From NCBI GenBank assembly GCA_029251165.1, contig JAQXDW010000095.1, forward strand, positions 4,423 to 68,422: 64,000 nt of DNA, read 5' to 3'. Origin of the DNA: Myxococcota bacterium (lineage in GTDB: Bacteria > Myxococcota_A > UBA796). The translations under genes were made by a program, and so were the position numbers. Shown piece by piece: positions 4,553-21,723 of this stretch. How positions within the stretch are numbered: the first letter of the stretch is position 1; each line of letters begins with the position of its first letter. Below the pieces are notes generated by a model that did no database searches, was not told the DNA's origin, and saw only the letters and a list, made by a program, of their open reading frames with translations.

Positions 4553-5454
4553 GCTTCCTCCAGGGCGGCCCGCATCTCGCGGACCGGGGGTGCTTCGTTG
4601 GTCCACCAGGCGAAGCTGAGTGCGGCCTGCTGAATGAGCATGCCGAGACCGGTCAGGGCACGGGCACCGTCGGCGCGGGCGGCTGCCAGCATCGGGGTGA
4701 CCAGCGGAGCGTAGACGAGGTCGACGACCACCTGATCGGGGGTAAAGCGGACCGGCCAGGGGCTCGCAGCACCGGTGGGGGTGCGCACGTTGTGCATACC
4801 GACCGGGGTGCAGTTGATGATGAGTGCGCCAGGGTCGATGGTGTCAGCGCGCATCGGCCAGGGCGTGACGGTGACCCTCTGGGTGGGAAAGTACCGGGCG
4901 AGGTCTTCGCAGAGTCGATCGGCCCGCTGAGAGGTTCGGTTGGCGATGATCATCGGTCCGCAGCCACGCTCCGCGAGCCCAAACGCCACTGCTCGTGCTG
5001 CGCCGCCCGCCCCGAGGATCACCACCGGTCGGCCCGGAAGGGAGATCTCGTTTGCCGAGAGATCAGAGATGAAGCCGATGGCATCGGTGTTGCCGCCGAT
5101 GAGTCGCCCGCTGGCGTCGATTCGGATGGTGTTGACGGCTCCGATTCGGTGGGCGGAGGGGGTGATCTCATCGAGATGGGGGATCACCGACTCCTTGAAC
5201 GGCATGGTGACGTTGGCGCCGACGAAGCCCATCGCCCGCATCCCACGGATCGCATCGACGAGCCGGGTCTCGTCCCCTGCTTGGACCGGCAGCGGCAGGT
5301 ACACCCAGTCCAGGCCCAGCGACGTGAACGCCTCGTTGTGCAGGCGCAGGCTCAGGGAGTAGCGGACGTCTCCACCCAGCAGACCGACGATCCGGGTGTG
5401 TCCGGTGATGCCTTGCTCTGCGGCGGCGTGGCTGCTCATGGCCTTGTCATTCAT
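4549..5454 (-). CDS. aroE: Shikimate dehydrogenase
   Basis: SLS..LHN, GANVTMPFKE, GAVNT, GNTD..GF, LGAGGAARA, NRT, DLVYAP, GLGMLIQQA. Probable ATG at 5454. Confidence 0.92.
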   Translation of the reverse strand: MNDKAMSSHAAAEQGITGHTRIVGLLGGDVRYSLSLRLHNEAFTSLGLDWVYLPLPVQAGDETRLVDAIRGMRAMGFVGANVTMPFKESVIPHLDEITPSAHRIGAVNTIRIDASGRLIGGNTDAIGFISDLSANEISLPGRPVVILGAGGAARAVAFGLAERGCGPMIIANRTSQRADRLCEDLARYFPTQRVTVTPWPMRADTIDPGALIINCTPVGMHNVRTPTGAASPWPVRFTPDQVVVDLVYAPLVTPMLAAARADGARALTGLGMLIQQAALSFAWWTNEAPPVREMRAALEEA

Positions 5455-6040
5455 TTCGGTGTCCTCCCCGGCGCAGCCGCATGGCAAGCCGTATGGACTC
5501 AAGGAAGCTGCGGAAGTCGAGGTGGGTGGTCCCGAGGAACACCATCAGCGCTTGCTCCATCACGTCGGCGAGCTGACGCATGCGCTTGATCCGATCGATG
5601 ACGTCAGAGGGGGCTCCGCTGCGGCGAGCTTCTTCTTCGGCTTCTGCCAGGGTGCTGCCCGCCTCTCGGATGACCCCTGCCTCTCGCCGCTGGATCATGC
5701 TGGAGATCATCGAGGTCAGCTCGGTGTTCGCCACATAGCGCCGGGTGCCGCTGCCCGGGTCGATGATGCGCTCGACGATGCCGAGGTTCTCCAGGTCGCG
5801 GGTGAGCATGGAGACGGCCCCCTTGGAGAGGTCGAGATCTCTCTGAAGCTCTGCGGCGCTCAGCGCGGCGTTGCGCAGGTACAGCAGCGCCCAGATCCGG
5901 CCGTGGTTTTGCTTGAATCCCCAGAAACCGATGACGCCACCGACGACATCGACAACCTTGACCTCCCACGATGCCAGCAGCTGTGACGTCGTGGGGGTGG
6001 GAGCTGCGGAGCCCCAGGGTCTGCCCAGCGCCGGGCTCAT
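5447..6040 (-). CDS. GbsR/MarR-family winged-helix transcriptional regulator
   Basis: FWGF...GRIWALLYL...LSAAELQRDLDLSKGAVSMLTRDLENLGIV...RRYV is typical of GbsR-type MarR proteins. ATG 6040 overlaps the upstream gene's stop. Confidence 0.8.
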   Translation of the reverse strand: MSPALGRPWGSAAPTPTTSQLLASWEVKVVDVVGGVIGFWGFKQNHGRIWALLYLRNAALSAAELQRDLDLSKGAVSMLTRDLENLGIVERIIDPGSGTRRYVANTELTSMISSMIQRREAGVIREAGSTLAEAEEEARRSGAPSDVIDRIKRMRQLADVMEQALMVFLGTTHLDFRSFLESIRLAMRLRRGGHRNE

Positions 6041-7026
6041 CCCGCCCGCTCCAGGGCAAAGCCCCGCCACATCATGGTTGCCCAGGCGGCCATCTCCGCG
6101 CAGCCAGGCCGCTCCTGGTACGGGCCGAGCGCATCGAGTGCTGCGGAGATCTCTTCACCGAGCATGTCGTAGGTCCGCGAGACCGCGCCGGTGTCGACGA
6201 CGGCCTGGCCGATGCGGTTGATCTCCTCAGGGGTCAGCGACTCCTTCCTCCAGGCGGCCTCCAGATCTCGGCGGAGGCCGTTGGAGGACTGGAGGGCGAG
6301 GATGAGCGGGTAAGAAGGGTTGGCGTTTCGGATGTCGGCGAACCGATCCTTGCCGATGTTCCCGCCGAGGATGTCCTTGAGATCGTCGGCCATCTGGAAG
6401 GCGACGCCGAAGCGATCACCGAACTGACCGAAGCCATCAAGGGCAGCATCATCTCCAGCCAGCCACGCCGCGCTGCGGCCGCACCAGCGGAACATCGCGC
6501 CGGTCTTTCCAAGCGCGATGTAGCGCCACTGCTGGATCGGCACATCGGTGCGCCCGCGAACATGGGCCTCCAGCATCGCTGCTCGGCTCATCGCCGCGAC
6601 AAGCTTCAGGGCTTCCTCGGTGATCGGGCGCTTCCAGCGGCGCAGGCCGTAGATGGCTTCTGACAGCAGCATGTCTCCGGCGAGGACGGCGGTGAGGTTG
6701 TCCCACCGCGCGTTGACCGTCTGGCGGCCGCGGCGCATGGTGCCTTCATCGATGACGTCATCGTGCATCAGGCTTGCGCCATGGATGAACTCCGCTGCCA
6801 TCGCGATGTCCGCCAGCGCATCTGTGTCGGCCTGGACGGCGAGGCCGAACATGTAGACCATGCGAGGACGAGCGCGCTTGGCCTCGCCAGCGAGGCACAG
6901 GTGGCGTGCGGCGTCGGCCATGACCGGGAGATCGGACCAGGAGGCCTCAGTGTCCCAGGAGAGGGCGACGTCGATGCGATGCTCGACCTCGGCAAGAAAG
7001 GCAGGCTGCTCTGCGATGCTGTTCAT
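6037..7026 (-). CDS. Polyprenyl diphosphate synthase (menaquinone side chain)
   Basis: KRARP, ASLMHDDVIDEGTMRRG (first DDxxD), GKTGA, AFQMADDLKD (second DDxxD). First gene of the men operon. Confidence 0.92.
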   Translation of the reverse strand: MNSIAEQPAFLAEVEHRIDVALSWDTEASWSDLPVMADAARHLCLAGEAKRARPRMVYMFGLAVQADTDALADIAMAAEFIHGASLMHDDVIDEGTMRRGRQTVNARWDNLTAVLAGDMLLSEAIYGLRRWKRPITEEALKLVAAMSRAAMLEAHVRGRTDVPIQQWRYIALGKTGAMFRWCGRSAAWLAGDDAALDGFGQFGDRFGVAFQMADDLKDILGGNIGKDRFADIRNANPSYPLILALQSSNGLRRDLEAAWRKESLTPEEINRIGQAVVDTGAVSRTYDMLGEEISAALDALGPYQERPGCAEMAAWATMMWRGFALERAG

Positions 7027-7032
7027 GCCGGA

Positions 7033-7061
7033 GATATATCGCCGTCAGAATCATAGTTCAA
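7033..7061 (-). promoter_or_regulatory. Putative sigma70 promoter of the men operon (leaderless)
   Basis: Minus strand reads TTGAAC-N17-TATATC-N6-ATG(7026); no Shine-Dalgarno. Confidence 0.55.
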
Positions 7062-7094
7062 GGCTTCTTGAACCTTTTTCAAGGCTTCTTGAAC
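7056..7094. promoter_or_regulatory. Tandem palindromic operator
   Basis: TTCAAGGCTTCTTGAAC occurs at 7057-7073 and 7078-7094 (21-bp period). Each copy is the inverted repeat TTCAAG-N4-CTTGAA. The first copy overlaps the -35. Confidence 0.7.
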
Positions 7095-7183
7095 TGCTCA
7101 CACGGATGGCGGCATGGTGTCTCGGCTTCCACCCAATTTCATGCGCGGATCATCATCGTATTTGTACCCTTCTTCGGTTGTCT

Positions 7184-8200
7184 TCAAGCACGCAGCACCA
7201 TCCGCCCCCGGAGCCCTCCCGCGAGCAATCTACGCTGCACCACATCGGCATCCTCCAGCGCGTGCTCTTCCGTCACAATCGACACAAAAGCCTGCCGTCG
7301 ATGCTCCGCCAGCACCGCCGCCATGTCCTGTGGGCTCGCGCCTCCGGGACCGATCACTGACTTCCCCATTGTGATCAGGTGTCCGAGGTTTACCGGGCTT
7401 CGCTCATTCGTCACGTTCCCCACAACCACCACCCGCCCCCCGACCCGCAGGCTCCGCACCGCTGCATTGAACGTCGGCACACCCACGCAGTCCAGCGCGA
7501 GGTCTGCTGGTGCGATGCTGTAGTGAAAGCGATTGTCCTTCGAGACCACCACCTGTGTGGCGCCCAGCGACTTCAGGTACGCCTCGTGCCCCGCTCGACG
7601 AACCACTGCGACCACTTCGTCAGCGAATCGCGCGGCGATCTGAACTGCAGCCGCCCCGACCCCACCGTTCGCCCCGGTGATCAGCACCCGCTCTCCCTTC
7701 ACGAGCTTTCCGGCAGTCACCAGGCTGCGCCATGCCGTCCCGAAGGTGCAGTGCAGGCTCGCGGCCATTCCCGCGTCCATGTCTTTATCTGCTCGATATA
7801 AACCGTTACACGGTAATATAAGGTGTCTTGCGTAGGTCCCGTCAGCGAGCAGGCCCAGCACCCAGGCACCAGACTGACACAGCGACGTCTCGCCTGCTGA
7901 GCAGGTGGTGCAATCTCCACAATTGTTACGGTGTAACGTTGCTACACGGTCTCCGATGGACCACTCCGATCCCGCTCCGACCGCCACAATCCGGCCCACA
8001 CCCTCGTGTCCGGGCACCACGGGGGTCTGGAGGAACGGGATGCGCCCGTCGCGATCGATGAGGTCGCGGTAGCACACCCCGGTGGCCTCGATGGCGACGG
8101 TGACCTGTCCCGGTCCGGGCTGCGGCACCGTGCCATCTCCCGTCACCACCGCGAGGTCTGCATCCCAGCCCGACTCCGTCATCACGATCTTCTCAATCAT
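7184..8200 (-). CDS. Zinc-dependent medium-chain alcohol dehydrogenase/reductase
   Basis: GVCYRD, PGHEGVG, CGDCTTC...C structural Zn site, ITGANGGVG. Confidence 0.88.
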   Translation of the reverse strand: MIEKIVMTESGWDADLAVVTGDGTVPQPGPGQVTVAIEATGVCYRDLIDRDGRIPFLQTPVVPGHEGVGRIVAVGAGSEWSIGDRVATLHRNNCGDCTTCSAGETSLCQSGAWVLGLLADGTYARHLILPCNGLYRADKDMDAGMAASLHCTFGTAWRSLVTAGKLVKGERVLITGANGGVGAAAVQIAARFADEVVAVVRRAGHEAYLKSLGATQVVVSKDNRFHYSIAPADLALDCVGVPTFNAAVRSLRVGGRVVVVGNVTNERSPVNLGHLITMGKSVIGPGGASPQDMAAVLAEHRRQAFVSIVTEEHALEDADVVQRRLLAGGLRGRMVLRA

Positions 8201-8828: not shown

Positions 8829-8861
8829 GTGGGCATGGTACCCCGGTGGTATGCTGACTCC

Positions 8862-9788
8862 ATGAAGATCGTGGTGACAGGTGGTGCTGGCTTCATTGGC
8901 TCAGTGCTCGTTCCCCGGCTCTTAGATGCCGGCCATCATGTCCACGTCGTGGACAACCTCATGTTCGGCGGGCAGGGAATGCTGCCGCTGTTCATCAACC
9001 CTCGCTTCTCGTTCGCCGAGGTCGACGTCACCCACCGTGACAAGCTCGCTCCCGAGCTTGCTGGCGCGGACGTGGTGATCCACCTCGCGGCATTGGTCGG
9101 CTATCCGCTGTGCAAGAAGCTCCCGGAGCGTGCCCAGGTGGTCAACGTCCAGGGTGCCCGCAACGTGCTGGAGCTGGCCCCGAAGGGCTGCCGGATGGTC
9201 TACGCCTCGACCGGCAGCAATTACGGTGAGGTCGAGGGCATCTGCACCGAGGCCACCCCGCTCAATCCGCTGTCTCTCTACGGACACACCAAGACCGACG
9301 CCGAGACCCTGTTCCTGGCCCATGAGAACTCGGTCTCGCTGCGGTTCGCCACGGCGTTTGGCATCTCGCCCCGGCTGCGGCTGGACCTGATGATCAACGA
9401 CTTCACCTGGCAGGCGATCCACCAGCGCTACCTCGTCGTCTACGAGAAGCACTTCCGGCGCACCTTCATCCACGTCATCGACATCGCCCGAGCGATCATC
9501 CACGTCATGGATCCCGGCGTCTGTAGCGGCCACAAGGTGTTCAACGTCGGGCACAATTCCCTGAACTACACCAAGGAAGACATCGTCAACCTCATCAAGG
9601 ATCGGGTGGACTTCATGGTCCACTACGCCGAGTTCGGCACCGATGCCGACAAGCGCGACTATGAGGTCGACTACTCCCGGATCAGCGAGTCTGGCTTCAA
9701 GACGATCATCGACATCAACACCGGACTCTCCGAGATGGTCGGTGCGCTGAAGCTGATGCGGATCAAGAACCCCTACAGCAACGTCTGA
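8862..9788 (+). CDS. NAD-dependent nucleotide-sugar epimerase/dehydratase
   Basis: MKIVVTGGAGFIGS, HLAALVG, YGHTK (YxxxK). True start is ATG 8862. Confidence 0.9.
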   Translation: MKIVVTGGAGFIGSVLVPRLLDAGHHVHVVDNLMFGGQGMLPLFINPRFSFAEVDVTHRDKLAPELAGADVVIHLAALVGYPLCKKLPERAQVVNVQGARNVLELAPKGCRMVYASTGSNYGEVEGICTEATPLNPLSLYGHTKTDAETLFLAHENSVSLRFATAFGISPRLRLDLMINDFTWQAIHQRYLVVYEKHFRRTFIHVIDIARAIIHVMDPGVCSGHKVFNVGHNSLNYTKEDIVNLIKDRVDFMVHYAEFGTDADKRDYEVDYSRISESGFKTIIDINTGLSEMVGALKLMRIKNPYSNV

Positions 9789-10711
9789 TGCCGATGGACT
9801 GGTCCGGTCTTCGGGTGCTGGTCACCGGGGGCCGTGGGTTCCTCGGTCGCTACATCGTCGCTGCGCTGGAGGCGCGGGGAGCCGAGCCGGTCGCGGTGGG
9901 CCGCGCAGAAGCCGACCTCTGCGATCAGGCCGCCACTGAGGCGATGGTCGCGGCTGTCCAGCCCCACGCGGTGATTCACTGCGCGGTGGAGGGCGGGGGC
10001 ATCGGCTGGATGCGGGACCACCCCGTCGAGTCCGGGCTCAACAGCACCCGGATGAACATCAACATCCTCTCTGCTGCCCAGCAGCATGGGGTGTCGCTGT
10101 TCGTGGGGGTCTCCTCCGCCTGCGTCTACCCCCGGCTCTGCCCGGTTCCGTTTGAGGAGTCCGACATCTGGAAGGGCTATCCCGAGCCGATCAACGGCCC
10201 CTACGCCCTCTCCAAGCGCCTGATGATGGACCTCGGCGCGGCCTGCACCCGGCAGTACGGCCTCAAGACTGTCTTTCCGATCCTCGCCAACCTCTACGGC
10301 CCCTACGATCACACCGACTCCCGTCGGGCGCATGTGGTGGCGGACCTGATGATCCGCTGCGCGTCGAGGCCGGAGTCGCTGACGGTGTGGGGAACCGGCA
10401 GCGCGAGTCGGGAGTTCCTCTATGCTGCAGACGCTGCGGAGGGGATCCTGGCGGCCGCTGCGGGACCGGCAGGGGCGATCAACATCGGCAGCGGAGAGGA
10501 GGTGAGCATCCTCGACCTTGCCCGTGCAGTGCTCACAGCCTGGAGGCTGGACATCCCCATCCTCCTCGACCGCAGCAAGCCGGACGGACAGCCCCGGAAG
10601 TGCCTGTCGGTGGAGCACGCCGCGTCGGTGCTCGGCTGGCGGGCGCCGACCAGCCTCGCGGACGGTCTCGCAGAGACGGCGGAGTGGTATGACGGCGTGC
10701 TGGGCGGGTGA
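9788..10711 (+). CDS. fcl: GDP-L-fucose synthase-like epimerase/reductase
   Basis: VTGGRGFLG, GGGIG, SSACVYP, YALSK, NLYGP, VWGTGSASREFLY, KPDGQPRK. Confidence 0.8.
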   Translation: MPMDWSGLRVLVTGGRGFLGRYIVAALEARGAEPVAVGRAEADLCDQAATEAMVAAVQPHAVIHCAVEGGGIGWMRDHPVESGLNSTRMNINILSAAQQHGVSLFVGVSSACVYPRLCPVPFEESDIWKGYPEPINGPYALSKRLMMDLGAACTRQYGLKTVFPILANLYGPYDHTDSRRAHVVADLMIRCASRPESLTVWGTGSASREFLYAADAAEGILAAAAGPAGAINIGSGEEVSILDLARAVLTAWRLDIPILLDRSKPDGQPRKCLSVEHAASVLGWRAPTSLADGLAETAEWYDGVLGG

Positions 10712-10820: not shown

Positions 10821-10961
10821 CTAAAACCTGCCCCTTAATTTCACCCCTGACGTTTCTCCTATGAGCCGCACAGACAAGCACTGTGCCTCACTGGGGAAGT
10901 GAAGACACGCGGGATGTTCCGTTGTGTTTTTCGTAGCTGTCACCACTCGAGGGGGAAGACA

Positions 10962-11426
10962 ATGATGATCCGTTCCATGCTCACGCTGCTGCTGCTGGGC
11001 CTCACGGCCTGTGACCTGGGAGAATTCAAGATCGACATCAACACCGATGGCATCGGTGACGAGGAGGACTTCGAGGGTGAAGAAGACTTCGAGGGTGAGG
11101 AGGACTGTGAGGAAGAAGACGAAGAGGACTGTGAGGAGGGGTGGGGCGACGAAGACGAGTGCGAGGCGCTGCTCGAGGAGGTCGAGGAGTACCTTGAGGA
11201 GTCGGGTCTCGACAGCGAAGAGCTGATTTCGCTGCTGGAAGAGGGGGAGACGGAGGAGGTGATGGCGCTGCTGGAAGAGTCCGGCATCGAGGCGGACGAG
11301 GAGCTGCTCGAGGAGATCACCGCGTGCTTCGACGAAGAGGACGAGGATGAGGATGAGGATGAGGACGAGGATGAGGACGAGGACGAGGATGACGAGGATG
11401 ACGAGGACGAGGATGACGAGGACTGA
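10962..11426 (+). CDS. Extremely acidic lipoprotein with poly-Asp/Glu tail
   Basis: MMIRSMLTLLLLGLTAC lipobox; purine-rich RBS upstream; last 31 residues are all D/E. Confidence 0.75.
   Translation: MMIRSMLTLLLLGLTACDLGEFKIDINTDGIGDEEDFEGEEDFEGEEDCEEEDEEDCEEGWGDEDECEALLEEVEEYLEESGLDSEELISLLEEGETEEVMALLEESGIEADEELLEEITACFDEEDEDEDEDEDEDEDEDEDDEDDEDEDDED
11337..11423 (+). repeat. Coding GAGGA(C/T) hexamer microsatellite
   Basis: Imperfect tandem GAGGAC/GAGGAT units encoding (ED)n. Confidence 0.85.
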
Positions 11427-11705: not shown

Positions 11706-13295
11706 TCATGGATCTTCACGTCCCGCGCGCGCAATCTGTCTCCCTCCGAGGTTCGCTGACAGCCCGGTGAACCCCTGAAGCTCGGTGATCGAGGCGATCT
11801 GTCCATCAACCACCGCCCGAAAGATCCCCCCACGAGCCCCCACCTGCAGTCCAAAGACCGGCCCGAGCGGAAGGTGCACACCGCCGCCGGCCCACACCCC
11901 GGGTGCCACAGTCTCCGCAGTAAACACCTCGACTCCCTCGATGTCGCCTTCTTCGTAGTCGTAGTTGTCCAGGCGCTGCGTGATCCAAGCGGCCTGAGCA
12001 CCTGCACTGACGGAGAGATCCAGCCTCGGCTGGTGACGCTCAACGAGCACCCCTCCGGCGAGCCGACTCGACGCGGTCAGCAGCTCGCCTCCCCAGGACT
12101 CCATCGCTCCTCGACCGGTACCGATGACCCCGACGATCCCGAGTCCGGGCCGCAGGAGGTGGCGGACCTCTGCCTCGATCCCGAGGTGAGATGGCGTGCC
12201 CGACAGCAGCGGCGGTGCTGCGGTGCCGTGGAGGGAGAGCCGAAGCGGGCGGAGGTTCCAGCCACCCCGCGCCAGCGGATCGCCGAGCGCGATGGAGTCC
12301 ATCTGGGCATCCTCCAGCCAGCGGTCTCCGCCCCACACCAGGTCCACCTCTGCGAGCAAGACGTCTTCCTGGCGCACCTTCCGCACGAGGTAGCGGCCGG
12401 TCGGCAGCGCGAGACGCCGCTGCTCTCCGGCAGTCTTTTCGATTCGGGCGACCACCAGCCCGGTGCTGACCGAGACGACGGTGTAGGTGCCCTCCAGCTC
12501 TTCGGGCAGCAGCAGTCCGGCCGCGCGGCTGGAGATCCGGGTGAGCACCACCGAGCCGACACCCTCCAGATCGTACCGACGCTCTGGGCGCTGGATGCTG
12601 CTGGCGGCGGCGGTGGAGGTGATGGTCTCGGTCCGGGCGTAGGTGTAGGCCTCTTCCAGTGAGATCTCACCGTCGCCGTCGCCGTCGGCGCTGCCCCGCA
12701 GTCCGCTGAGCAGCGACTGGGTGAACACGCCGCCGCCGAAGGCATCTGCCTCTCGGGCGACCTCGGCGGGGCCTGTGGAGGTGATGACTGCGAGGCCGGA
12801 CATGGTGAGGGTGTCGTCCACTACGATCTCGACCGCCTCGACCGGTGTGCCGCCCCGGCTGCGGGTCAGCACGCCAGAGCCGCAGGCATCCACGAACGCG
12901 ATCCGCACCTCCGCAGCGCTCGACTCCAGCCACCGCCGCAGGACCGCCATCGGCAGCAGGTTGCCGGAGAGGTGCAGCCCGTCGGGACTGGCGTGGCCGG
13001 AGTAGAAGAAGATGAGCATGACGTCATCGCCCCGGGCAGTGATCTCCCGGATCTGGGCCTCGGTCTGGAACACCGCCTCGCGGACCGCAGCGGCGCTCGT
13101 GCCGGTCAGCAGCAGCGTGCGGTCCCGAGACAGCGCCCCCTGCTGCTGGAACAGCCGGGCCATGTCTCGGGCCTCTTGCTCGGCGTAGGTCAGCTCGGCG
13201 TCCTCGCCAAAGCCGATGTTGTTTCCGATAAAGACACCGACCCGCACCGTCTCGGCGCGGGCGATCATCCCAGCCAGCAGCAGGGCAGTGCTCAT
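11706..13295 (-). CDS. Exported caspase-like (peptidase C14) protein with beta-strand-rich C-terminus
   Basis: Signal-like MSTALLLAGMIARA; IGNN.G, L.YAEQEA, FFYSGHA (His), FVDACGSG (Cys), GGVFT..LL.GLRG.AD.DGDG.ISL.EAY. ATG 13295 overlaps the upstream stop. Confidence 0.85.
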   Translation of the reverse strand: MSTALLLAGMIARAETVRVGVFIGNNIGFGEDAELTYAEQEARDMARLFQQQGALSRDRTLLLTGTSAAAVREAVFQTEAQIREITARGDDVMLIFFYSGHASPDGLHLSGNLLPMAVLRRWLESSAAEVRIAFVDACGSGVLTRSRGGTPVEAVEIVVDDTLTMSGLAVITSTGPAEVAREADAFGGGVFTQSLLSGLRGSADGDGDGEISLEEAYTYARTETITSTAAASSIQRPERRYDLEGVGSVVLTRISSRAAGLLLPEELEGTYTVVSVSTGLVVARIEKTAGEQRRLALPTGRYLVRKVRQEDVLLAEVDLVWGGDRWLEDAQMDSIALGDPLARGGWNLRPLRLSLHGTAAPPLLSGTPSHLGIEAEVRHLLRPGLGIVGVIGTGRGAMESWGGELLTASSRLAGGVLVERHQPRLDLSVSAGAQAAWITQRLDNYDYEEGDIEGVEVFTAETVAPGVWAGGGVHLPLGPVFGLQVGARGGIFRAVVDGQIASITELQGFTGLSANLGGRQIARAGREDP

Positions 13296-14041
13296 GGCAT
13301 GTCGTCCTCTCCCTTCACGATCATCACCGATCGCTGCTGGTCTGCGGCACCGGGCAGGACATCGAGATCCGCCAGCGGTGCCCGCCACGCGCGCTGGACC
13401 GCACCGGAGACGATCGCCTCGGTGATCTCTTCGTCGTCGAGCAGGAAGAAGATGCGCTCGCTTCCCGCATAGTCGTCGAGCACCACCGCATGCTCCGTGG
13501 TCTCCCCCTTTCCGATCGGCTCGCTGGTCAGGTAGGGCTGCAGCGTGCCGTCGTCCTGGAGGTTGTAGACGGCGATGTAGCCGTCGGACTCGGCGGTGAT
13601 GATGTACTGGATGCGATCGCCGGCCTGCGCACGGATGAGGCTTGCCTGGGTGTCGGCTTGCCCGTCTCGGACTCGGACGATCTCCAGTCCGATGCCCTCA
13701 CCTCGGGCCACCATGCCGCCAGGGGTTGCGGGGTCGGTGATGGTGACGGCGAGGATGGCGGCAGCGGCCGCCGCGAGCCCGCCGAGCAGCATCGGCGGCG
13801 GACTCAGGATGCGCCGCCACCACGGCTCGACCTCGGCGGGCAGCCGAAGGACGGGCATGCCCTGTGCGGCATCGGTGACCTCGGCATGGATGCGCTGTAC
13901 CCGGTCGTCGAGCGAAGGATCCGCAGCACGGGCGGCAGCGAGGGCCTCGGCGCGGGCCGGGTCCAGGCGTCCAAGCGCTGCGAACTCCAGCTCCAGCCGG
14001 GTGAAGGTGTCGGAGGGGTCTGCGGGCATGTCGGCTCTCAT
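13292..14041 (-). CDS. Putative membrane anti-sigma factor with DUF4384-like extracytoplasmic domain
   Basis: Short helical N-terminus, one TM (LLGGLAAAAAAILAVTI), then GDRIQY...GYIAVY...VVLDD..GSERIFF. Translationally coupled to the ECF sigma. Confidence 0.65.
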   Translation of the reverse strand: MRADMPADPSDTFTRLELEFAALGRLDPARAEALAAARAADPSLDDRVQRIHAEVTDAAQGMPVLRLPAEVEPWWRRILSPPPMLLGGLAAAAAAILAVTITDPATPGGMVARGEGIGLEIVRVRDGQADTQASLIRAQAGDRIQYIITAESDGYIAVYNLQDDGTLQPYLTSEPIGKGETTEHAVVLDDYAGSERIFFLLDDEEITEAIVSGAVQRAWRAPLADLDVLPGAADQQRSVMIVKGEDDMP

Positions 14042-14544
14042 GGTGACTCCACGGCGAGCAGGGGGGGGTCGGCACCGAGCAGGGCACGCGCGCGTGCCTC
14101 CAGCCGCGCCAGGTTGCGCCGGATGGTGCGCTGGGAGGTGTCGAAGTGCTCGGCGATCTCCTGGATTCGCCAGCCCTCGCCCAGCCGCAGCCGCAGCATC
14201 GCGGCGTCTCGGGGGCCGAAGCGATCGAGGAGGCGTCGGACATCGAGCTGGGAGCCGGCGCCAGCTCGCTCGGGGGCGGGCAGGCTGAGCCAGGTGAGGG
14301 GATCGTCTTGCCAGGGGCGGCGCTTTCGCAGCACGTCGAGGGAGGTGTTCCGCGCGATGGTCTGGAGCCAGGCGAGGGGGTGTCGTCCGTCGAACCGTCG
14401 CCGAGCCTTCCAGGCGCGCAGGAAGGTCTCCTGGAGGGCCTCGTCGGCGTCGGCTTCGTTGCCGCAGATCGATCGACACCGTGCGCGAACAGCCGGTCCG
14501 TAGTCGGCGTAGAGCGACTGGAATTCTGCCTGCGTCAAGCTCAT
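14038..14544 (-). CDS. ECF sigma-70 factor
   Basis: LYADYGPAV..., ADADEALQETFLRAW, WLQTIARNTSLDVLRKR (region 2); EGWRIQEIAEHFDTSQRTIRR (region 4). ATG 14544. Confidence 0.9.
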   Translation of the reverse strand: MSLTQAEFQSLYADYGPAVRARCRSICGNEADADEALQETFLRAWKARRRFDGRHPLAWLQTIARNTSLDVLRKRRPWQDDPLTWLSLPAPERAGAGSQLDVRRLLDRFGPRDAAMLRLRLGEGWRIQEIAEHFDTSQRTIRRNLARLEARARALLGADPPLLAVESP

Positions 14545-15209
14545 TCGTCGCACGCTGCGGTCAGTCCGCCGAGCCCGGTGCCGGTGAACACCATCTGGGC
14601 GGCTCCGGAGAGCCAGGAGATGGACACGACGCGCACTCCCTCCTCCTCCTGCTCCACCAGGTCCTCCTCCGACAGCGGATAGAGCGAAGCCGCGAGGGAA
14701 CCCCGGGCCAGCGCGAGCTCTGGCAGCATGCCGACCCACTGGCTGCCCTCGGTGAATTCGCCGTCGTCTCCATCCAGCATGAGATCTTCGGTGAGCGCAT
14801 CGAGGTCACCCTCGCCCAGCAGCAGCGCTCGGGAATCCACAGCGCCCCATGCGCCAGGCTCGTCAGCCAGCTCTTCTGCCTCTGCGACCTCGTCGGGATC
14901 GACCCGCTCCGGGTTGACCAGGACCAGCAGCCCCAGCGCCCAGCGATACGCGCCCTCTTCGATCCAGACCGGAGACTCGTAGAGCTCGGGAGGCTCGGCG
15001 TAGACCCGGCCCATGGTCAGCTCTGGCGCGATGTCCTCCAGCGCGATGAGGCTGCACTCCGCGAGCAGTCCCTCGTCGTCGTCGATGAGCCACCGAAGCG
15101 ACCACGCCGGCTCTGTTGGAAGCGGTGGAATGTCCGACAGCTCCGCCAGGGCATCTCCGCTGAGGAGCCCATCGCCGCAGCCGGCCAGGACGAGTATGAG
15201 CATCGGCAT
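14541..15209 (-). CDS. Acidic lipoprotein, first gene of the ECF-caspase operon
   Basis: MPMLILVLAGC lipobox; stop overlaps the sigma start (ATGA). Confidence 0.7.
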   Translation of the reverse strand: MPMLILVLAGCGDGLLSGDALAELSDIPPLPTEPAWSLRWLIDDDEGLLAECSLIALEDIAPELTMGRVYAEPPELYESPVWIEEGAYRWALGLLVLVNPERVDPDEVAEAEELADEPGAWGAVDSRALLLGEGDLDALTEDLMLDGDDGEFTEGSQWVGMLPELALARGSLAASLYPLSEEDLVEQEEEGVRVVSISWLSGAAQMVFTGTGLGGLTAACDE

Positions 15210-15375
15210 CGTGTGGATCTGCTCCGGTCTGACAGAGAAACGAACCGCACACGATTATGGGGCGTTTTTCTGTTTTTTTTTGGACGCTGTCCAAAATCGC
15301 TGTCGACTGAAGTCGCTGGGAGCGGCATGAGAGAGTGTCCATCAGCGTGCTATGCTCGCCGCCGGAGGAGCCGCC

Positions 15376-16356
15376 ATGGTCCTGCTGCTGCTGAGTGCCT
15401 GCCTGGAGCGGGTGACTGGCGAGGACGTACCACTGGACCCTGCATTCTACGCCGCCCATGAAGGTGAGCATGGCGAGGGTGGGGTCGGCGGCGGGAGCGC
15501 AATCCCGTTCTCTGATGTCGACGGAGAGAAGGTCACGGTTCGCGGCGTGGTCGAGTCGGTCATCGCTGACCTGCCGGTCGACATCGACGTCCGCGTGCCG
15601 GATCCCGCCGCGCCTGGAGGGGTCGCGGGGAAAGGAAAGATCCTCCTTGATTTTCCCGGTGAATTTGAGCTGAGTGTGCCCCGTGGACTGGGCACGCTGG
15701 AGCTTCAGGCCTTTCAGGATGCAGACTCCGACGGCCCGACCGGCGACGATCCCTTCGCCGCTGCATGGCTGGAGGTGGGCGAGGTTGATGTCACCGATGT
15801 CGTCCTCGTCCTGGAGGCGGGTGCGCGCGGAGGCGGCCCGGTCCACGAGGCCGCGCCTCCGGGTGCCCCAGGCGGCGGTCCGGGCGGCGGTCCGGGCGGC
15901 GGCGGAGGCCCCAGCGCGGCAGGCCCAGGGGGCAACCCCGATCCGTTCGCCGGCATCGCGGGGGATCGGGTGGTGCTGTCGGGAGAGCTGATCTGCGACT
16001 GCACCGGCAGCGTCGACCTCGACCTGTTCGCACCAGATAGCGCCGCGCCGGGCGGCCGCCGGATGCTGGGCAAGATGAAGATGGCGGTGGGAGGGTACGA
16101 GCTGCACGTCCCTGAGCACTTCGGACCGCTGATCCTGGAGGGCTTCGTCGACACCACCGGCGACGGACCCTCCCCCGGCGATGCGATGGGGAAGTACACC
16201 GGAAACCCCGTCAACATCGGTGACAACGATATCGACAGCGTCGACATCACACTGCTTGTCCCTGCCGACGGCATGATGCCCCAGGGCGATCCCAAGCCCC
16301 CGCCGAAGCCTGAGGATCTCCAGCCGGCCAGCCCGCCACCGAGCGGCGGGATCTGA
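15376..16356 (+). CDS. Lipoprotein with two repeated beta-sandwich-like domains and a Gly/Pro linker
   Basis: GGAGG RBS then MVLLLLSAC; internal duplication (PDPAAPGG..GK / PDSAAPGG...GK; AFQDADSDGP / GFVDTTGDGP). Confidence 0.75.
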   Translation: MVLLLLSACLERVTGEDVPLDPAFYAAHEGEHGEGGVGGGSAIPFSDVDGEKVTVRGVVESVIADLPVDIDVRVPDPAAPGGVAGKGKILLDFPGEFELSVPRGLGTLELQAFQDADSDGPTGDDPFAAAWLEVGEVDVTDVVLVLEAGARGGGPVHEAAPPGAPGGGPGGGPGGGGGPSAAGPGGNPDPFAGIAGDRVVLSGELICDCTGSVDLDLFAPDSAAPGGRRMLGKMKMAVGGYELHVPEHFGPLILEGFVDTTGDGPSPGDAMGKYTGNPVNIGDNDIDSVDITLLVPADGMMPQGDPKPPPKPEDLQPASPPPSGGI

Positions 16357-16521: not shown

Positions 16522-18153
16522 ATGGGCGTGTTGATAATCAGTGCACTGATGGGTGTGGCTCTTGCCGCAGACTCTCCGGAGAGCGTCGGCGATCTCACCA
16601 TCTCTGAGTTCATGGCTGAGCCACAGGAGGTCCCCAATTACACCGGGGAGTGGTTCGAGCTGTACAACGCCTCGGGCAAGGAGCTGGATCTGCAAGGTCT
16701 GGTCGTGCGCGGGGACACCGACTCCGGCTTCACGGTGACCAGCTCGGTCATCGTGCCCGCTGGAGACTATGTGGTGCTCGGAGTGGGAGACTGCGACGAC
16801 TACACCAGCTGCTCCTCCAACCAGTACAACGGCGGGATCGCGATGGACTACGTCTACGATCGCACCACCTTTGAGCTGGACGAGGACGGCGACACGATCC
16901 GCATCGTCTTCAACAGCCTCAACATCGATCAGGTCAGCTGGAGCTCTACCTGGCCGATCCAGAACGACTACGCGCTGCAGGCGAACACCAACGCCTACGA
17001 TCTGGAGTGGGCCAACAACCTCAACCACAATTGGTGCTCCTCAGACGCCCGCTACGGAGACGAGGCCCTCTACGGAACCCCGGGCGAGGCCAACCAGCCC
17101 TGCGACGACTCCAACCTCGACGACGACGGCGACGGCTACACCGAGGCCAACGGCGACTGCGACGACACCGACCCCTACGTCCATCCCGGCGCCTATGACG
17201 GCTCGGTCCACGACGACACCACCGGCGACTACACCCTCGGCGAGGGCTGCTGCGGCAACATCGACGACGACGCGGACTGCGACGGTGTGCGAGACGATGG
17301 TGACCTCGACCGCGACGGCGACGGCTACTCCGAGATCAACGGCGACTGCGACGACAGCGACGCTGAGCGCAACCCGGGCGCGGTCGAAGAGGACGGCTAC
17401 ACCGGAGTCGATGACGACTGCAACGACTGTGTGGACGACTTCGACGATGACGAGGATGGCTACTCGGACTGTCCTGAGTGGTCCTCGCCCTTCGACGAAG
17501 ATCCCGCACAGGCGGACTGCGACGACGACAACGAGACCGCCTTTCCCGGCGCCAGCGAGGCTCCCTACGACGCGATCGACAACGACTGCGACGGCTTCGA
17601 CCAGTGCGACGTCGACGGCGACGGCTACCTCGCGCTGCCCGAGACGGTCTGCTCAGGCCTCGACGCTGACGGCGACGGGGTGCTGGACTGCTGCGCGGAG
17701 GAGGACTTCGAGAACCATCCCGACGGCGCGAAGGTCGAGGGGGACTGCGACGACAACAACGCCGCGGTCAACCCAGGCAGCACCGAGGGCTCAGTGGAGA
17801 CCGGCGGTCAGGCGGACGGCATCGACAACGACTGCAACGGCACCATCGATGATCCCTACCAGGATCTCGATCAGGACGGCTGGGCGGGCTCTGATGGCGA
17901 CTGCAACGATGACCCCGATGATCCAAACGCCATCTTCATCTACCCCGGCGCGGAGGAGCTCTGTGATGACTTCCTCGACAACGACTGCGATGGTCTGTTC
18001 AACGATGGCTGCGAGAACCGAGGCAAGTACGCTTCCTTAGAGGGTGGAAGTCTCTGCGGGCTGAGTCCGCGCGGATCCAATAAGAGTGCGGTGCTGCTGC
18101 TGCTGACCCTGATCGCTGTGGTCGTGCGGGCGCGTGGAGAGAGATCATGCTGA
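16522..18153 (+). CDS. Surface protein: lamin-tail domain + Asp/Cys-rich (MopE-like) repeats + MYXO-CTERM-like anchor (TraA-like architecture)
   Basis: Signal peptide; LTD motifs GDLTISEFMAEP, GEWFELYN, GTPG..N; DCDD...PGA.E..D.IDNDC.G repeats; C-terminal GGSLCG-linker-TM-RARGER. Confidence 0.8.
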   Translation: MGVLIISALMGVALAADSPESVGDLTISEFMAEPQEVPNYTGEWFELYNASGKELDLQGLVVRGDTDSGFTVTSSVIVPAGDYVVLGVGDCDDYTSCSSNQYNGGIAMDYVYDRTTFELDEDGDTIRIVFNSLNIDQVSWSSTWPIQNDYALQANTNAYDLEWANNLNHNWCSSDARYGDEALYGTPGEANQPCDDSNLDDDGDGYTEANGDCDDTDPYVHPGAYDGSVHDDTTGDYTLGEGCCGNIDDDADCDGVRDDGDLDRDGDGYSEINGDCDDSDAERNPGAVEEDGYTGVDDDCNDCVDDFDDDEDGYSDCPEWSSPFDEDPAQADCDDDNETAFPGASEAPYDAIDNDCDGFDQCDVDGDGYLALPETVCSGLDADGDGVLDCCAEEDFENHPDGAKVEGDCDDNNAAVNPGSTEGSVETGGQADGIDNDCNGTIDDPYQDLDQDGWAGSDGDCNDDPDDPNAIFIYPGAEELCDDFLDNDCDGLFNDGCENRGKYASLEGGSLCGLSPRGSNKSAVLLLLTLIAVVVRARGERSC

Positions 18154-19976
18154 TTGCGCTGGCGCTGTCGCTGTCCGCCCAGGCCCAGGACAATGAAGAC
18201 GCGCAGGATCACACCATCGACTTCGAGCTGTTCCGGCCCTACCCGGACGCCATGGGCTACCTCGGGGTGCCCTCCGCAGCGACCCTGGGTCACCTGCAGG
18301 TCGGGTTCTCGTTCTGGGGCAACTATCAGAACGATCCGCTCGTCTTGAGCTACGATGGAGAGCGTGTCGCACCGAAGGCTGCGCTGGTCGATGGTGACGA
18401 CGGCGACGGCGTCGTCGATGACCGGTTCACCAGCAATGTTCAGGTCGGAATCGGCCTGTCCCGGTACTTCTCGCTGACCGCTGATGTCCCGCTCATCTTC
18501 TGGCAGGATGGCTACTCTCTCGACGGCATCGACAACCCGATCGTCGAGCCCGACGCCCTGATCACGTCTGGCGTCGGAGACGTCCGGCTTCAGCCCAAGG
18601 TGGTGGCGCTGGACCGGGATCGCATGCCGGTCGGCCTGTCCATCGCCGTGCCCGTGAGCGTGCCCACTGGCGGTGGCGGCTCGTTCCTCGGAGAGGAAGC
18701 CTTCACCATCACTCCGACCGTGATCACTGAGGTCTCCAACGGCTCGATCATGGCGCGGGAGTACACCGTGCGGTCATCGTTTGTGCTCGGCTATCGGGTG
18801 CGGGACCAGGGACGACTCCGAGACGTCCGTCTGGCAAACGAGATGGTCTATGGAGCCGCCCTGGGCTTCCACCCGGCGGATCCGATTGAGCTGATGATCG
18901 AGGCACGCGGCAACGTCGGCGGCTCTCGTACCGCGCAGAACCCGGCAGAGGTCCTCGGCGGCGCCAAGTTCCTCATCGGCCGCTACGTCAACATCAACGT
19001 CGGCGGCGGCGCGGGCATCGTGTCGGGACTCGGTGCGCCGGACTACCGCCTCGTCTTCGGCCTCAGCCTCGCTCCGTCCTTCGACCCCAACGCCCGGGAC
19101 TCTGACAAGGACGGCATCTCCGACGGCATGGATCGCTGTCCGAAGGATCCTGAGGATCTCGACGGCTTCCAGGACGAGGACGGCTGCCCGGACCTCGACA
19201 ACGACGTCGACAACATCCCCGACACTCAGGATCAGTGCCCCAACGATCCTGAGGACGACGACGGCTGGCTCGACAACGACGGCTGCCCGGACACCGACAA
19301 CGACAAGGACGCCATCCTCGACGTCGCCGATCGCTGCCCCAACGATGCTGAGACCGCCAACGGCTACATGGACGACGACGGCTGCCCCGACGAGGCGCCC
19401 ATCGACGACACCGACGGTGATGGCTACCGCGACGACGTCGACCGCTGCCCATACGATGCCGAGGACTTCGACGGCTTCCAGGACGAGGACGGCTGTCCAG
19501 ACCTCGACAACGACAACGACGGCATCTCCGACAGCGTCGATCAGTGCCCGACGGTTCGCGAGGTGTTCAACGGGGTCGATGACGAGGACGGCTGCCCGGA
19601 CGAGGGACGGGTCGTGGTCGAGTCCGGCTCGATCAAGATCCTGGAGAAGATCTACTTCGAGTCTGGCAAGGCAACGATCCAGGCGCGCTCCAACAGCCTC
19701 ATCGATGAGATCGCTGCCACCATCGAGTCCCGTCCGGAGATCCTCAAGATCCGGGTCGAGGGTCACACCGACAGCGTCGGCGGCGACATGAACAACCTGC
19801 GGCTGTCGCAGTCCCGCGCAGAGGCGGTGGTCACGGCCCTCGTCCAGCGCGGCATCTCGAGCGATCGCCTCGACGGCGTCGGCTTCGGTGAGATGCGCTC
19901 GATCGCGACCAACGACACCGAAGAGGGACGCGCAGAGAACCGCCGGGTCGAGTTCATCATCGTCGATCGCAAGTAG
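18147..19976 (+). CDS. Outer-membrane beta-barrel + thrombospondin type-3 repeats + OmpA domain (TraB-like architecture)
   Basis: Signal peptide; amphipathic strands over the first ~310 aa; five D.D.D.I/Y.D..D.CP...DGCPD units; C-terminal IYFESG, EGHTD, NLRLSQSRA, NRRVEF. Confidence 0.88.
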   Translation: MLIALALSLSAQAQDNEDAQDHTIDFELFRPYPDAMGYLGVPSAATLGHLQVGFSFWGNYQNDPLVLSYDGERVAPKAALVDGDDGDGVVDDRFTSNVQVGIGLSRYFSLTADVPLIFWQDGYSLDGIDNPIVEPDALITSGVGDVRLQPKVVALDRDRMPVGLSIAVPVSVPTGGGGSFLGEEAFTITPTVITEVSNGSIMAREYTVRSSFVLGYRVRDQGRLRDVRLANEMVYGAALGFHPADPIELMIEARGNVGGSRTAQNPAEVLGGAKFLIGRYVNINVGGGAGIVSGLGAPDYRLVFGLSLAPSFDPNARDSDKDGISDGMDRCPKDPEDLDGFQDEDGCPDLDNDVDNIPDTQDQCPNDPEDDDGWLDNDGCPDTDNDKDAILDVADRCPNDAETANGYMDDDGCPDEAPIDDTDGDGYRDDVDRCPYDAEDFDGFQDEDGCPDLDNDNDGISDSVDQCPTVREVFNGVDDEDGCPDEGRVVVESGSIKILEKIYFESGKATIQARSNSLIDEIAATIESRPEILKIRVEGHTDSVGGDMNNLRLSQSRAEAVVTALVQRGISSDRLDGVGFGEMRSIATNDTEEGRAENRRVEFIIVDRK

Positions 19977-20340
19977 ACGGCTGAGGCGTGTGCATGACAC
20001 GGGCCTCTCCGTGTCGCCTCTGCGTTCCCCGGTCCCGGCCTCAGCAGGAGGCTCGGGAAAAGGCGGAGAGTTCAGTCTTGCGCCGCCTTGTTGGCGGTCA
20101 GTCCTTGTTTGTTGGGTTCTCTGTGCCCTCTTGTTGTATGATGATGGCCCAGTCCCCTTCGTGAGGTCACCGTGGAGACCCTCAGCTTGTCTGCCGTCTG
20201 CCTGGTCTGCATCACCGAGACGCTCGACCCCAGCGGACCGCAGCGCGCTGGAAAAGATGCCGCCATCACGGCCTGTTGTCTCCGCTGGGGTGAACAGCAC
20301 GGACATGAACCTGGCTGCGGCTGAGAACTGAATTGTGAGG

Positions 20341-21723
20341 ATGGAGATGAGATCACTGGTATTGATGAGCCTGTGCGTGGGTGCTCTGTTGGTTGGCTGT
20401 GGTGACAAGGATGTCACCACCGACACCGCTGACCTGGACACGGACGACACCACCGACACCGACACCGATGACACCGACACCGATGACACCATGGTGCCCG
20501 AGGAGCCGGTTCAGGTGCTCATCGAGGGTGTGGTCCGGGTGCAGCTGTACACCGAAGATGAAGACGGCGAGCGCACCTACATCTCCTGGGGAGACAGCTA
20601 CGGCAGCACCTACCCGTTCGGCTCGATCTTCCTGACCTCCTACACCGAGGGGAAGTCTGGAGACATCGACTACTATGGCTCCACGATCGTTGCAGCCGCT
20701 GACGTCACTCCGGACACCGGCAACGAGTACGCCATCACCATCAACCTCTCGGAAGATGGAACGGTCAGCCTGTACGCTGCGGTGGATTACTGGGGCGACA
20801 ACATCATCGGAACCGATGAGCCCATCGGAGTCTACCCCGGCGAGGTTGAGATCATCGAGGGCGAGGATGTGGAGGGACTGGACATCACGATCCTGGTTCC
20901 CTACTACGACTTCGACGGCAAGGGCGGCGACGTCGGCAGCAAGGGTGGCGACATCGGCAGCAAAGGCTCAGGCTGTGACGATGTCTCGATCACCGGTGAC
21001 ATCGACCTCACCCGAGACTTCTCCGGCGGCCGCGCGGTGGGGATGCTGGTGGACAATGCCGGCAATGGGCCCTACGACTGGGGCTGGTCGGATCTCACCG
21101 CGACCAAGAGCGGAGCCACCGGCACCTACGCCATCAGCACCTGCGAGGACTACGGCACCTTCCAGCTGCGCGGTGCCTGGGACAGCAACGGCAACGAGCT
21201 GATCGATCCGGCGGATCTCTGGGGAAGCTACGCCAACAGTGACGGCGTGGATGCAAACCCGATCGCCATCGGCTCGAACAATCTGCCAGGCTACGACATC
21301 CTCATCCCGCTGGGGAGCGGTGGCCTGTCGGTCATTCCCTACAGCCGCCTGTCGGGCACCCTCGATGTCGGCGGGGGAACCTTCGACGACCTGCCCGAGG
21401 ACACCAGCGCGGTCTACGTGGTTGCCCTGAAGTACCGTCCGACGACCGGCATCTCCCTGGCGACCCTCTACGAGCAGGCCTACGACGTGCAGGTGTTCGA
21501 GCCGGATGACTTCTCCGGTCAGTCGATCCTCGACTGGTCGCTGAGCGTGCCGTCGAACAGCATCATCTACCTGTGGGCCTACGCCGACTCCAACAACATC
21601 GAGACCGTCAACGAGTCTGGCGAGTTCCTGGCCTCGGGCGGAGACGACGACAACGGCAAGATCGTCACCAGCAGCGGCCTGAGCGAGGGCAACCACATGA
21701 CCCTCGGACAGGCTCCGGATTAG
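20341..21723 (+). CDS. Acidic surface lipoprotein with DT-rich linker and repeated beta-domains
   Basis: LLVGC lipobox; (DTD)n linker; three domains containing YAAVDYWGD / GAWDSNGN / AYADSNN. Confidence 0.8.
   Translation: MEMRSLVLMSLCVGALLVGCGDKDVTTDTADLDTDDTTDTDTDDTDTDDTMVPEEPVQVLIEGVVRVQLYTEDEDGERTYISWGDSYGSTYPFGSIFLTSYTEGKSGDIDYYGSTIVAAADVTPDTGNEYAITINLSEDGTVSLYAAVDYWGDNIIGTDEPIGVYPGEVEIIEGEDVEGLDITILVPYYDFDGKGGDVGSKGGDIGSKGSGCDDVSITGDIDLTRDFSGGRAVGMLVDNAGNGPYDWGWSDLTATKSGATGTYAISTCEDYGTFQLRGAWDSNGNELIDPADLWGSYANSDGVDANPIAIGSNNLPGYDILIPLGSGGLSVIPYSRLSGTLDVGGGTFDDLPEDTSAVYVVALKYRPTTGISLATLYEQAYDVQVFEPDDFSGQSILDWSLSVPSNSIIYLWAYADSNNIETVNESGEFLASGGDDDNGKIVTSSGLSEGNHMTLGQAPD

Follow-up and report, generated by a model that had tools for sequence, protein, structure and literature searches.

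Gene content of the locus

We analyzed a 64,000-nucleotide stretch (the window) of contig JAQXDW010000095.1 from the Myxococcota bacterium assembly GCA_029251165.1, with attention to a four-gene operon on its minus strand that encodes, in order of transcription, an acidic lipoprotein, a sigma factor of the extracytoplasmic function (ECF) type, a candidate single-pass anti-sigma factor, and an exported caspase-fold protease (Table 1). A sequence-only reading had described the four genes as chained by ATGA overlaps, and the plus strand indeed reads TCAT at 14541-14544, 14038-14041, and 13292-13295. [quoted passage not shown] The source genome (8.0 Mb in 152 contigs) is 90.75% complete; a relative with an 87% identical caspase carries the label Myxococcota.

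Table 1. Features of the operon and its surroundings (window coordinates; aa, amino acids; pLDDT, predicted local distance difference test score; ORF, open reading frame).
Feature	Position	Strand	Evidence
Second promoter-motif copy, upstream of convergent acidic lipoprotein gene	10822..10857	+	19.9 bits
Asp/Glu-rich lipoprotein, 154 aa, convergent with caspase gene	10962..11426	+	ORF; no Pfam match
Exported caspase-fold protease, 529 aa	11706..13295	-	Peptidase_C14 E 1.2e-9 (Pfam); AlphaFold pLDDT 79
Caspase R343-G344, candidate release site at the junction before the barrel	12264..12269	-	Basic 139/139, Gly 136/139; predicted cleavage
Caspase R147-G148, candidate self-processing site	12852..12857	-	Basic 138/139, Gly 139/139; predicted cleavage
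Single-pass anti-sigma factor, 249 aa	13292..14041	-	AlphaFold pLDDT 87; PRK13920 E 6.9e-5
Anti-sigma R113-G114, 10 residues beyond the membrane helix; candidate for site-1 cleavage	13700..13705	-	Basic 135/139; predicted cleavage
ECF sigma factor of 168 aa, with regions 2 and 4 only	14038..14544	-	Sigma70_r2 (PF04542) E 1e-19; Sigma70_r4_2 (PF08281) E 4.6e-7
Acidic lipoprotein, 222 aa, lipobox LAGC11	14541..15209	-	No Pfam or NCBIfam match
Operon promoter, ECF type (predicted)	15236..15271	-	A-tract, GCCCC (-35, 15263-15259), 16-nt spacer, CGTT (-10, 15242-15239)

Sigma factor and candidate anti-sigma factor

The sigma factor scores 81 bits against TIGR02937 (cut-off, 42.9) and has the build of an ECF member, a short protein with no regions other than 2 and 4. 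In the AlphaFold model of the protein encoded next, a three-helix anti-sigma domain (ASD) without zinc (residues 15-61) is followed by a membrane helix (84-102), a low-confidence linker, and a periplasmic immunoglobulin (Ig) sandwich resembling DUF4384 (115-243). The earlier description of one transmembrane segment with an extracytoplasmic domain beyond it thus agrees with the hydrophobic segment at 84-102 and the predicted Ig-like sandwich, although the protein's own DUF4384 match falls below threshold (E 0.057). The N-terminal helical ASD, the single membrane helix, and the position of the gene directly after that of the sigma factor are traits of class I membrane anti-sigma factors. The zinc ligands HxxxCxxC, which mark the zinc-binding anti-sigma (ZAS) subtype, are absent from the window protein and present in 49 of 139 relatives (here and below, counts out of 139 refer to aligned anti-sigma/caspase pairs from 138 loci and the window). 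Because of these ligands, the matches of two anti-sigma models to 21/72 and 17/72 family members, and the DUF4384 found in 17/72, we place the third gene in the ZAS/ASD anti-sigma family, with binding to the sigma factor as a prediction. [quoted passage not shown]

A profile of the family picks up the N termini of ChrR and DdvA weakly (E 0.03-0.8). Fold searches with the outer domain returned generic Ig-like matches alone (best Z score, 8.6); there was no Csx30 chain among these or among the anti-sigma profile matches, a result that excludes nothing, and no longer, fused form of the anti-sigma factor was found among 8000 candidates scored, which is weak evidence. In public records, two distant relatives (L155 and L159) are named "ActD-like protein," a label uninformative on function, and one relative is identical to a protein recorded for Persicimonas caeni. 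Outside triads of sigma, anti-sigma, and caspase genes, seven loci (L241, L243-L246, L248, and L252) encode 630-aa proteins with a C-terminal DUF4384 at approximately residue 495.

A metacaspase-like domain on a predicted outer-membrane barrel

The last gene had been said to encode a caspase-fold protein with an intact His/Cys dyad, a signal peptide, and a barrel-like, strand-rich C terminus, and each of these elements was recovered. The protein comprises a signal peptide, a C14 domain (16-253), a beta-sandwich (260-336), and an eight-stranded barrel (351-516). The dyad lies at SGH101 and DAC138, with both residues kept in 139/139 relatives. The signal peptide is short and, judged by eye, lacks a basic n-region; a hydrophobic N-terminal stretch is present in 137/139. 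The eight predicted strands, amphipathic and closing into a barrel, match OmpA (Z score, 18.9; root-mean-square deviation [rmsd], 1.9; 134 residues aligned) as well as OmpW, NspA, and OprF. A C-terminal aromatic residue is found in 63/139 caspases; that of the window instead ends in a short basic tail. The best structural match of the catalytic domain is metacaspase 4 (Z score, 19.9; rmsd, 3.0; 207 residues aligned), PF00656 was detected in 60/60 members of the caspase family, and neither CHAT nor TPR matched any of 72 anti-sigma factors or 60 caspases (E 0.01). The protease thus falls among C14 metacaspase-like enzymes rather than CHAT proteases, and is predicted to be active.

Three acidic positions, D/E41, D136, and E182, are each conserved in 139/139 aligned sequences. 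We take them to correspond to the Arg/Lys pocket of metacaspases. In the alignment, E41 falls on the Asp of the metacaspase motif that follows the first strand, and the counterparts of D136 and E182 are among the residues that a docking study lists for an Arg-binding pocket (PMC8283722). Because these pocket positions are acidic throughout, the caspase is predicted to be specific for Arg/Lys.

Outer-membrane barrels of eight strands keep their N and C termini in the periplasm; those of autotransporters are 12-stranded. With both of its ends inside, the modeled barrel should leave the protease domain hanging on the periplasmic face of the outer membrane. The envelope location first proposed for the caspase is therefore kept, with protease and putative substrate predicted to share the periplasm.

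Conservation of the gene triad

A caspase profile was run against 182 genomes of the class and a wider profile against a 401-genome sample of the phylum, matching 160/182 and 251/401 genomes, respectively, with weak matches counted in. From the best matches listed, 140 loci were taken; the set is not random, because places with room upstream were chosen. L001 was omitted as a duplicate of L041, and L002 was omitted as a distant caspase without these neighbors. Sigma, anti-sigma, and caspase genes are adjacent in that order in 133/140 loci, so that the linkage exceeds chance and the conservation in other genomes on which the original proposal depended is observed. The remaining seven comprise three contig edges, two loci without a sigma gene, one without a detectable anti-sigma gene, and one caspase alone. 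The caspase gene adjoins the anti-sigma gene in 138/140 loci, overlapping or abutting it in 119.

The operon's lipoprotein has a narrower distribution. We defined its caspase subfamily as the 37 places with a full-length caspase at E < 1e-140, which lie in 36 genomes; the lipoprotein occurs at 35 places in 34/182 genomes, all among these 36, and in the two subfamily genomes without it, less than 1.1 kb of contig lies upstream. In 32/35 places it is encoded just upstream on the caspase's contig, and its lipobox Cys is invariant (19/19 lipoproteins). Since the lipoprotein is restricted to one caspase subfamily, the triad is the core of the module and the four-gene form is one subfamily of it. 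No Pfam or NCBIfam family was matched; a search of 1.84 billion representatives gave 74 matches, and Atlas matches were all below 0.8 and offered no lead. We regard it as a candidate sensor or co-regulator dedicated to one subfamily of the module. At one locus (L039; G174:C79:27417-27734), the match to the lipoprotein gene is partial and includes one TAG stop, with the triad intact.

Two further sigma/anti-sigma/caspase triads are encoded on other contigs of the source genome. These paralogous triads (L182, G000:C45:47125-50464; L183, G000:C40:24178-27139) lack both the lipoprotein and the operon's promoter, and the L183 caspase has diverged, with loss of the loop motif (see below).

A basic-Gly motif at three sites

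A basic residue followed by Gly or another small residue is conserved at one site in the anti-sigma factor and two in the caspase (Table 1). At the anti-sigma site, which lies a median of 14 residues from the membrane helix, in a linker that borders the Ig domain and is modeled with low confidence, the basic residue is Lys in 98 and Arg in 37 of the pairs, and the next residue is G/A/S/T in 139/139. This puts the likely cut in the linker that joins the membrane helix to the outer domain, rather than inside the outer domain as earlier proposed. The first caspase site sits in a loop nine residues past the catalytic Cys, in a disordered stretch (pLDDT below 50 for residues 140-165). In its extended form, the motif R-x-[K/R]-small is found at the anti-sigma site in 89/139 pairs, R-x-[K/R]-G in the caspase loop in 126/139, and both in 86/139; elsewhere in the anti-sigma factors, R-x-[K/R]-small has a background of 0.003 per position. 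Lys makes up 633 of 3630 basic residues in the anti-sigma factors, against 98 of 135 at the site, so its excess there is not a matter of composition. DUF4384 proteins outside triads mostly lack the motif: 3/29 have [RK]G in the 33 residues preceding the domain that were examined (a thirtieth locus, which has [RK]G, proved to be a triad and was set aside). At one locus (L067; G162:C100), a hydrophobic residue replaces Lys/Arg at both the anti-sigma and the loop sites, which may reflect a joint change of specificity, although the acidic residues of the pocket are still there.

The second caspase site bears on a problem of distance, as the protease is predicted to be at the outer membrane and its candidate target approximately 10 residues from the inner one. 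The conserved basic-Gly before the barrel would solve this, because a self-cut there would free the enzyme.

Promoter and predicted regulon

The operon is preceded by a predicted promoter with the consensus A-tract, GCCCC-N16/17-CGTT. This pattern, read by eye, lies at most 1.8 kb upstream in the window and in 15/20 orthologous loci, a count that is not independent because the pattern was read from those loci. A matrix that was trained on 20 sites, all from outside the source genus, scores the operon promoter at 30.9 bits and finds four sites of 29.3-34.7 bits in the source genome, the operon's among them, where ten shuffled genomes reach at most 24.0. Source-genome sites of 17-20 bits are within chance by comparison with the shuffled genomes and were rejected. 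The exact pattern has 17 sites in 7/10 genomes with the subfamily, 10 of them away from the operon; the reversed pattern has none, nor does the exact pattern occur in five genomes without the subfamily. Among loci of other subfamilies, 1/116 has a weak match before the sigma gene. Because ECF operons are usually autoregulated, we infer that the operon's sigma factor reads this promoter.

An ORF starts at most 52 bases from each of 21 sites (the 17 above and four in the source genome, one of just 17.4 bits), and the products of 19/21 have a loose lipobox pattern, which probably overcounts. Among them are DUF1587/1595/1592/1588 lipoproteins in three genomes (in the source genome, DUF1552 comes next) and proteins of the CotH family in two, along with enzymes of the GDSL, trypsin, M23, and GH43 types and acidic proteins without a family; no defense family was found among the 21 predicted target proteins. 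The predicted output is therefore envelope lipoproteins. The strongest site (L219; G000:C147:13013-17200) stands before a gene for a DUF1587/1595/1592/1588/1585 lipoprotein, a DUF1552 gene, and a 3-oxoacyl-ACP synthase III-like gene, which gives DUF1587/1595/1592/1588/1585-DUF1552 operons a candidate regulator. At three loci (L044, L046, and L047), DUF1592-type genes that by eye resemble the one for the C147 protein lie beside the operon itself.

The window holds a second copy of the motif, upstream of the Asp/Glu-rich lipoprotein gene that converges on the caspase gene (Table 1). The copy is weak on its own, as shuffled genomes reach its score 1 to 4 times; the lipoprotein is a probable member of the regulon. 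Acidic proteins of similar composition are encoded within the operon, on its upstream side, in L033-L036 and L042, and BLAST found no link between these and the window's lipoprotein.

Neighboring genes

On the other side of the operon, a divergent plus-strand run (15352-16356, 16522-18153, 18147-19976, 20335-21723, and 21958-22896) encodes acidic proteins that are exported, namely two lipoproteins whose repeats are rich in Asp, an LTD protein (MopE-type repeats), an OmpA-domain protein (TSP3-like repeats), and an F5/8-type protein. At a locus of the same genus (L041), the gene at 15352 likewise diverges from the operon. The remaining neighbors are ordinary: shikimate dehydrogenase-like, helix-turn-helix (HTH) regulator, polyprenyl synthase-like, and zinc alcohol dehydrogenase-like genes at 4549-8200 on the minus strand (by eye), and two NAD-dependent epimerase genes at approximately 8860-10711 on the plus strand.

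Relation to known systems

Association of metacaspases with sigma factors in myxobacteria has been reported before. Four of the five Myxococcus xanthus metacaspases were placed in operons with sigma-70 factors in 2012, as were others in Anaeromyxobacter, Haliangium, Sorangium, Ralstonia, and Fibrobacter (Asplund-Samuelsson et al., PMC3501461), and these very probably have the same gene arrangement as the window; the passages of that paper on these operons favor a role in cell death and name no anti-sigma factor, barrel, cleavage site, promoter, or mechanism. CHAT neighbors have also been listed for ECF54 (PMC8999054) and ECF genes for EACC2-caspase loci (PMC8195603). A term search of a 2025 review (PMC12288465) shows no caspases and no act operon, and no description of the triad's mechanism was found in the literature searched, which covered few subscription journals.

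One close likeness is to DdvS/DdvA of M. xanthus, where an ECF sigma factor is paired with a ZAS-type single-pass anti-sigma factor and a periplasmic caspase fold is proposed to cut the juxtamembrane linker ahead of RseP (PMC11506125). Autoproteolysis of the DdvA linker before the RseP step has been proposed (PMC11506125, PMC6061681). [quoted passage not shown] RseA-DegS-RseP likewise releases an ECF sigma factor through a periplasmic site-1 cut and a site-2 cut by RseP (PMC10028731), but DegS is an inner-membrane serine protease encoded elsewhere, and the candidate site-1 enzyme here is a co-encoded cysteine protease of the outer membrane.

The sequence-only reading had set the operon beside type III CRISPR systems and proposed that it works independently of them, and independence is what the genome points to: no Cas gene was found nearby, and Cas1 was not found in the genome at its estimated completeness. 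No Cas7-11/Cmr, Csx29/30/31, or SAVED-CHAT gene was found in the locus; with PADLOC, 0/4 operon genes matched among 15 proteins in and around the locus, and nearby there were only a generic OmpA/MotB match and a weak HTH match. In type III-E systems, a clan CD protease, Csx29, cuts the anti-sigma factor Csx30, an inhibitor of CASP-sigma, between its sigma-binding part and its C-terminal domain (PMC10028731); one group of Csx30 C-terminal domains is DUF4384 (10.1101/2022.08.17.504292), which is thus common to some Csx30 proteins and the anti-sigma family. That system differs in being cytoplasmic and RNA triggered, in its CHAT-family protease, in needing Cas7-11 and Csx31, and in its soluble Csx30 (PMC10028731). 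The SAVED-CHAT/PCaspase/PCc-sigma locus of Haliangium ochraceum also sets a proteolytically activated C14 caspase beside a sigma factor in a member of the Myxococcota, but PCaspase is cytoplasmic, is switched by cyclic oligoadenylate via a second protease, cuts the sigma factor itself and many other proteins, and leads to abortive death (10.1101/2023.06.23.546230). The link to type III CRISPR systems is one of analogy, not membership; the locus resembles DdvS/DdvA and RseA-DegS in its working and belongs to neither, nor to type III-E.

Proposed mechanism and alternatives

We think it probable, though by no great measure, that the caspase, having processed itself and left its barrel, performs the site-1 cut on the anti-sigma factor, after which RseP, which the source genome encodes, frees the sigma factor. 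The topology, each cleavage and their order, and the binding of the sigma factor are what we infer from the predicted domains and conserved residues. At rest, the anti-sigma factor would hold the sigma factor at the inner membrane, and the caspase zymogen would be suspended by its barrel at the periplasmic side of the outer membrane, apart from its substrate. A signal, perhaps sensed by the subfamily-specific lipoprotein or by the barrel loops, would activate the caspase, which would cut its own loop at R147|G and its own tether at R343|G. The freed enzyme would diffuse to the anti-sigma factor and cut it at R113|G, so that the bulky Ig domain is lost; a cut by RseP within the membrane would follow, and the released sigma factor would transcribe its own operon, in feedback, and a few envelope lipoprotein genes. 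The conserved triad, the intact dyad and acidic pocket, the shared motif with its scarcity in other DUF4384 proteins, the double change in L067, and the presence of RseP count in favor of this sequence of events, as does DdvA, a precedent for a periplasmic caspase fold facing a juxtamembrane linker and for RseP acting once the outer domain is gone (PMC11506125).

Several observations weigh against it. One locus (L173) has the caspase alone, and at another (L035; G081:C67), the orthologous operon runs from promoter to acidic lipoprotein, lipoprotein, anti-sigma, and caspase genes without an intervening sigma gene. Four anti-sigma factors (L052, L067, L079, and L088) lack a basic residue at the aligned column, 19 loci pair Arg in the anti-sigma factor with Lys in the loop, and the window anti-sigma factor has no Arg two places before the site (M-V-A-R|G). 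The motif coincides with the Ig domain's first residue and may have a structural role in the subfamily, and the DUF4384 control is rough, being positional. Agreement of Arg versus Lys between the anti-sigma factor and the loop gives a raw p of 2.6e-11, uncorrected for kinship, but on a FastTree tree with the motif columns left out, two to three independent pairs agree and none disagree (p 0.25-0.5). With so few events behind it, covariation was dropped as support.

The promoter would drive the caspase gene along with the rest of the operon, which fits equally well a caspase that is mere output. General periplasmic proteases would then activate an ordinary ECF/anti-sigma pair, the caspase would act on other envelope or prey proteins, and the anti-sigma basic-Gly would be structural or cut by another trypsin-like protease. 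The position of the motif before the whole operon, the exported hydrolases among the other predicted targets (GDSL, trypsin, and M23), and the lack of phylogenetically independent covariation between the sites all suit this account, yet an output gene should drift as the other targets do, which vary between genomes, and the caspase gene stays beside the anti-sigma gene almost throughout. As the anti-sigma site also matches the caspase's own loop motif and its predicted specificity, we judge the account unlikely, if still the most serious rival. The shared motif would at most show recognition by one pocket, not turnover, and a basic-Gly linker that occupies the active site could make the periplasmic part of the anti-sigma factor a bait or inhibitor, with loss of contact as the signal and the sigma factor freed conformationally or by another protease. 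A protease inhibitor, PCi, is indeed encoded beside PCaspase and its sigma factor (10.1101/2023.06.23.546230). A site so close to the inner membrane would, however, be hard to reach for a barrel-tethered enzyme at rest, and the proposed site-1 cuts of DdvA likewise fall before a bulky domain (PMC11506125), which leaves a bait improbable. An N-terminal enzyme, a C-terminal barrel, and a candidate release site between them also make an autotransporter-like layout, in which the caspase domain would be displayed on the surface or shed as a predation or matrix-processing protease and would never meet the anti-sigma factor; given the strand number of the barrel and its OmpA-type matches, with both ends in the periplasm, we consider this very improbable.

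If the caspase does release itself and cut the anti-sigma factor, the module might also stand for something larger: a widespread, CRISPR-independent trans-envelope class in which a caspase zymogen tethered to the outer membrane frees itself and cuts a co-encoded anti-sigma factor at the same R-x-[K/R]|G type of site, with paralogues insulated by their own promoters and accessory lipoproteins, and from whose housekeeping stock the Csx29/Csx30-type and DdvA-type defense switches would have been drawn. We advance this wider proposal tentatively and with some doubt. For most bacterial caspase homologues, no substrate is known to us. Here a candidate substrate can be named, together with three exact candidate cut sites and a promoter ready for use in a reporter, which makes the role of myxobacterial metacaspases, in signaling or in cell death, directly testable. 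If the proposed mechanism is true, the caspase would be a site-1 protease of a new kind, controlled through its release from the outer membrane, and the module would parallel, in the envelope, the sigma factors under caspase control in type III CRISPR systems.

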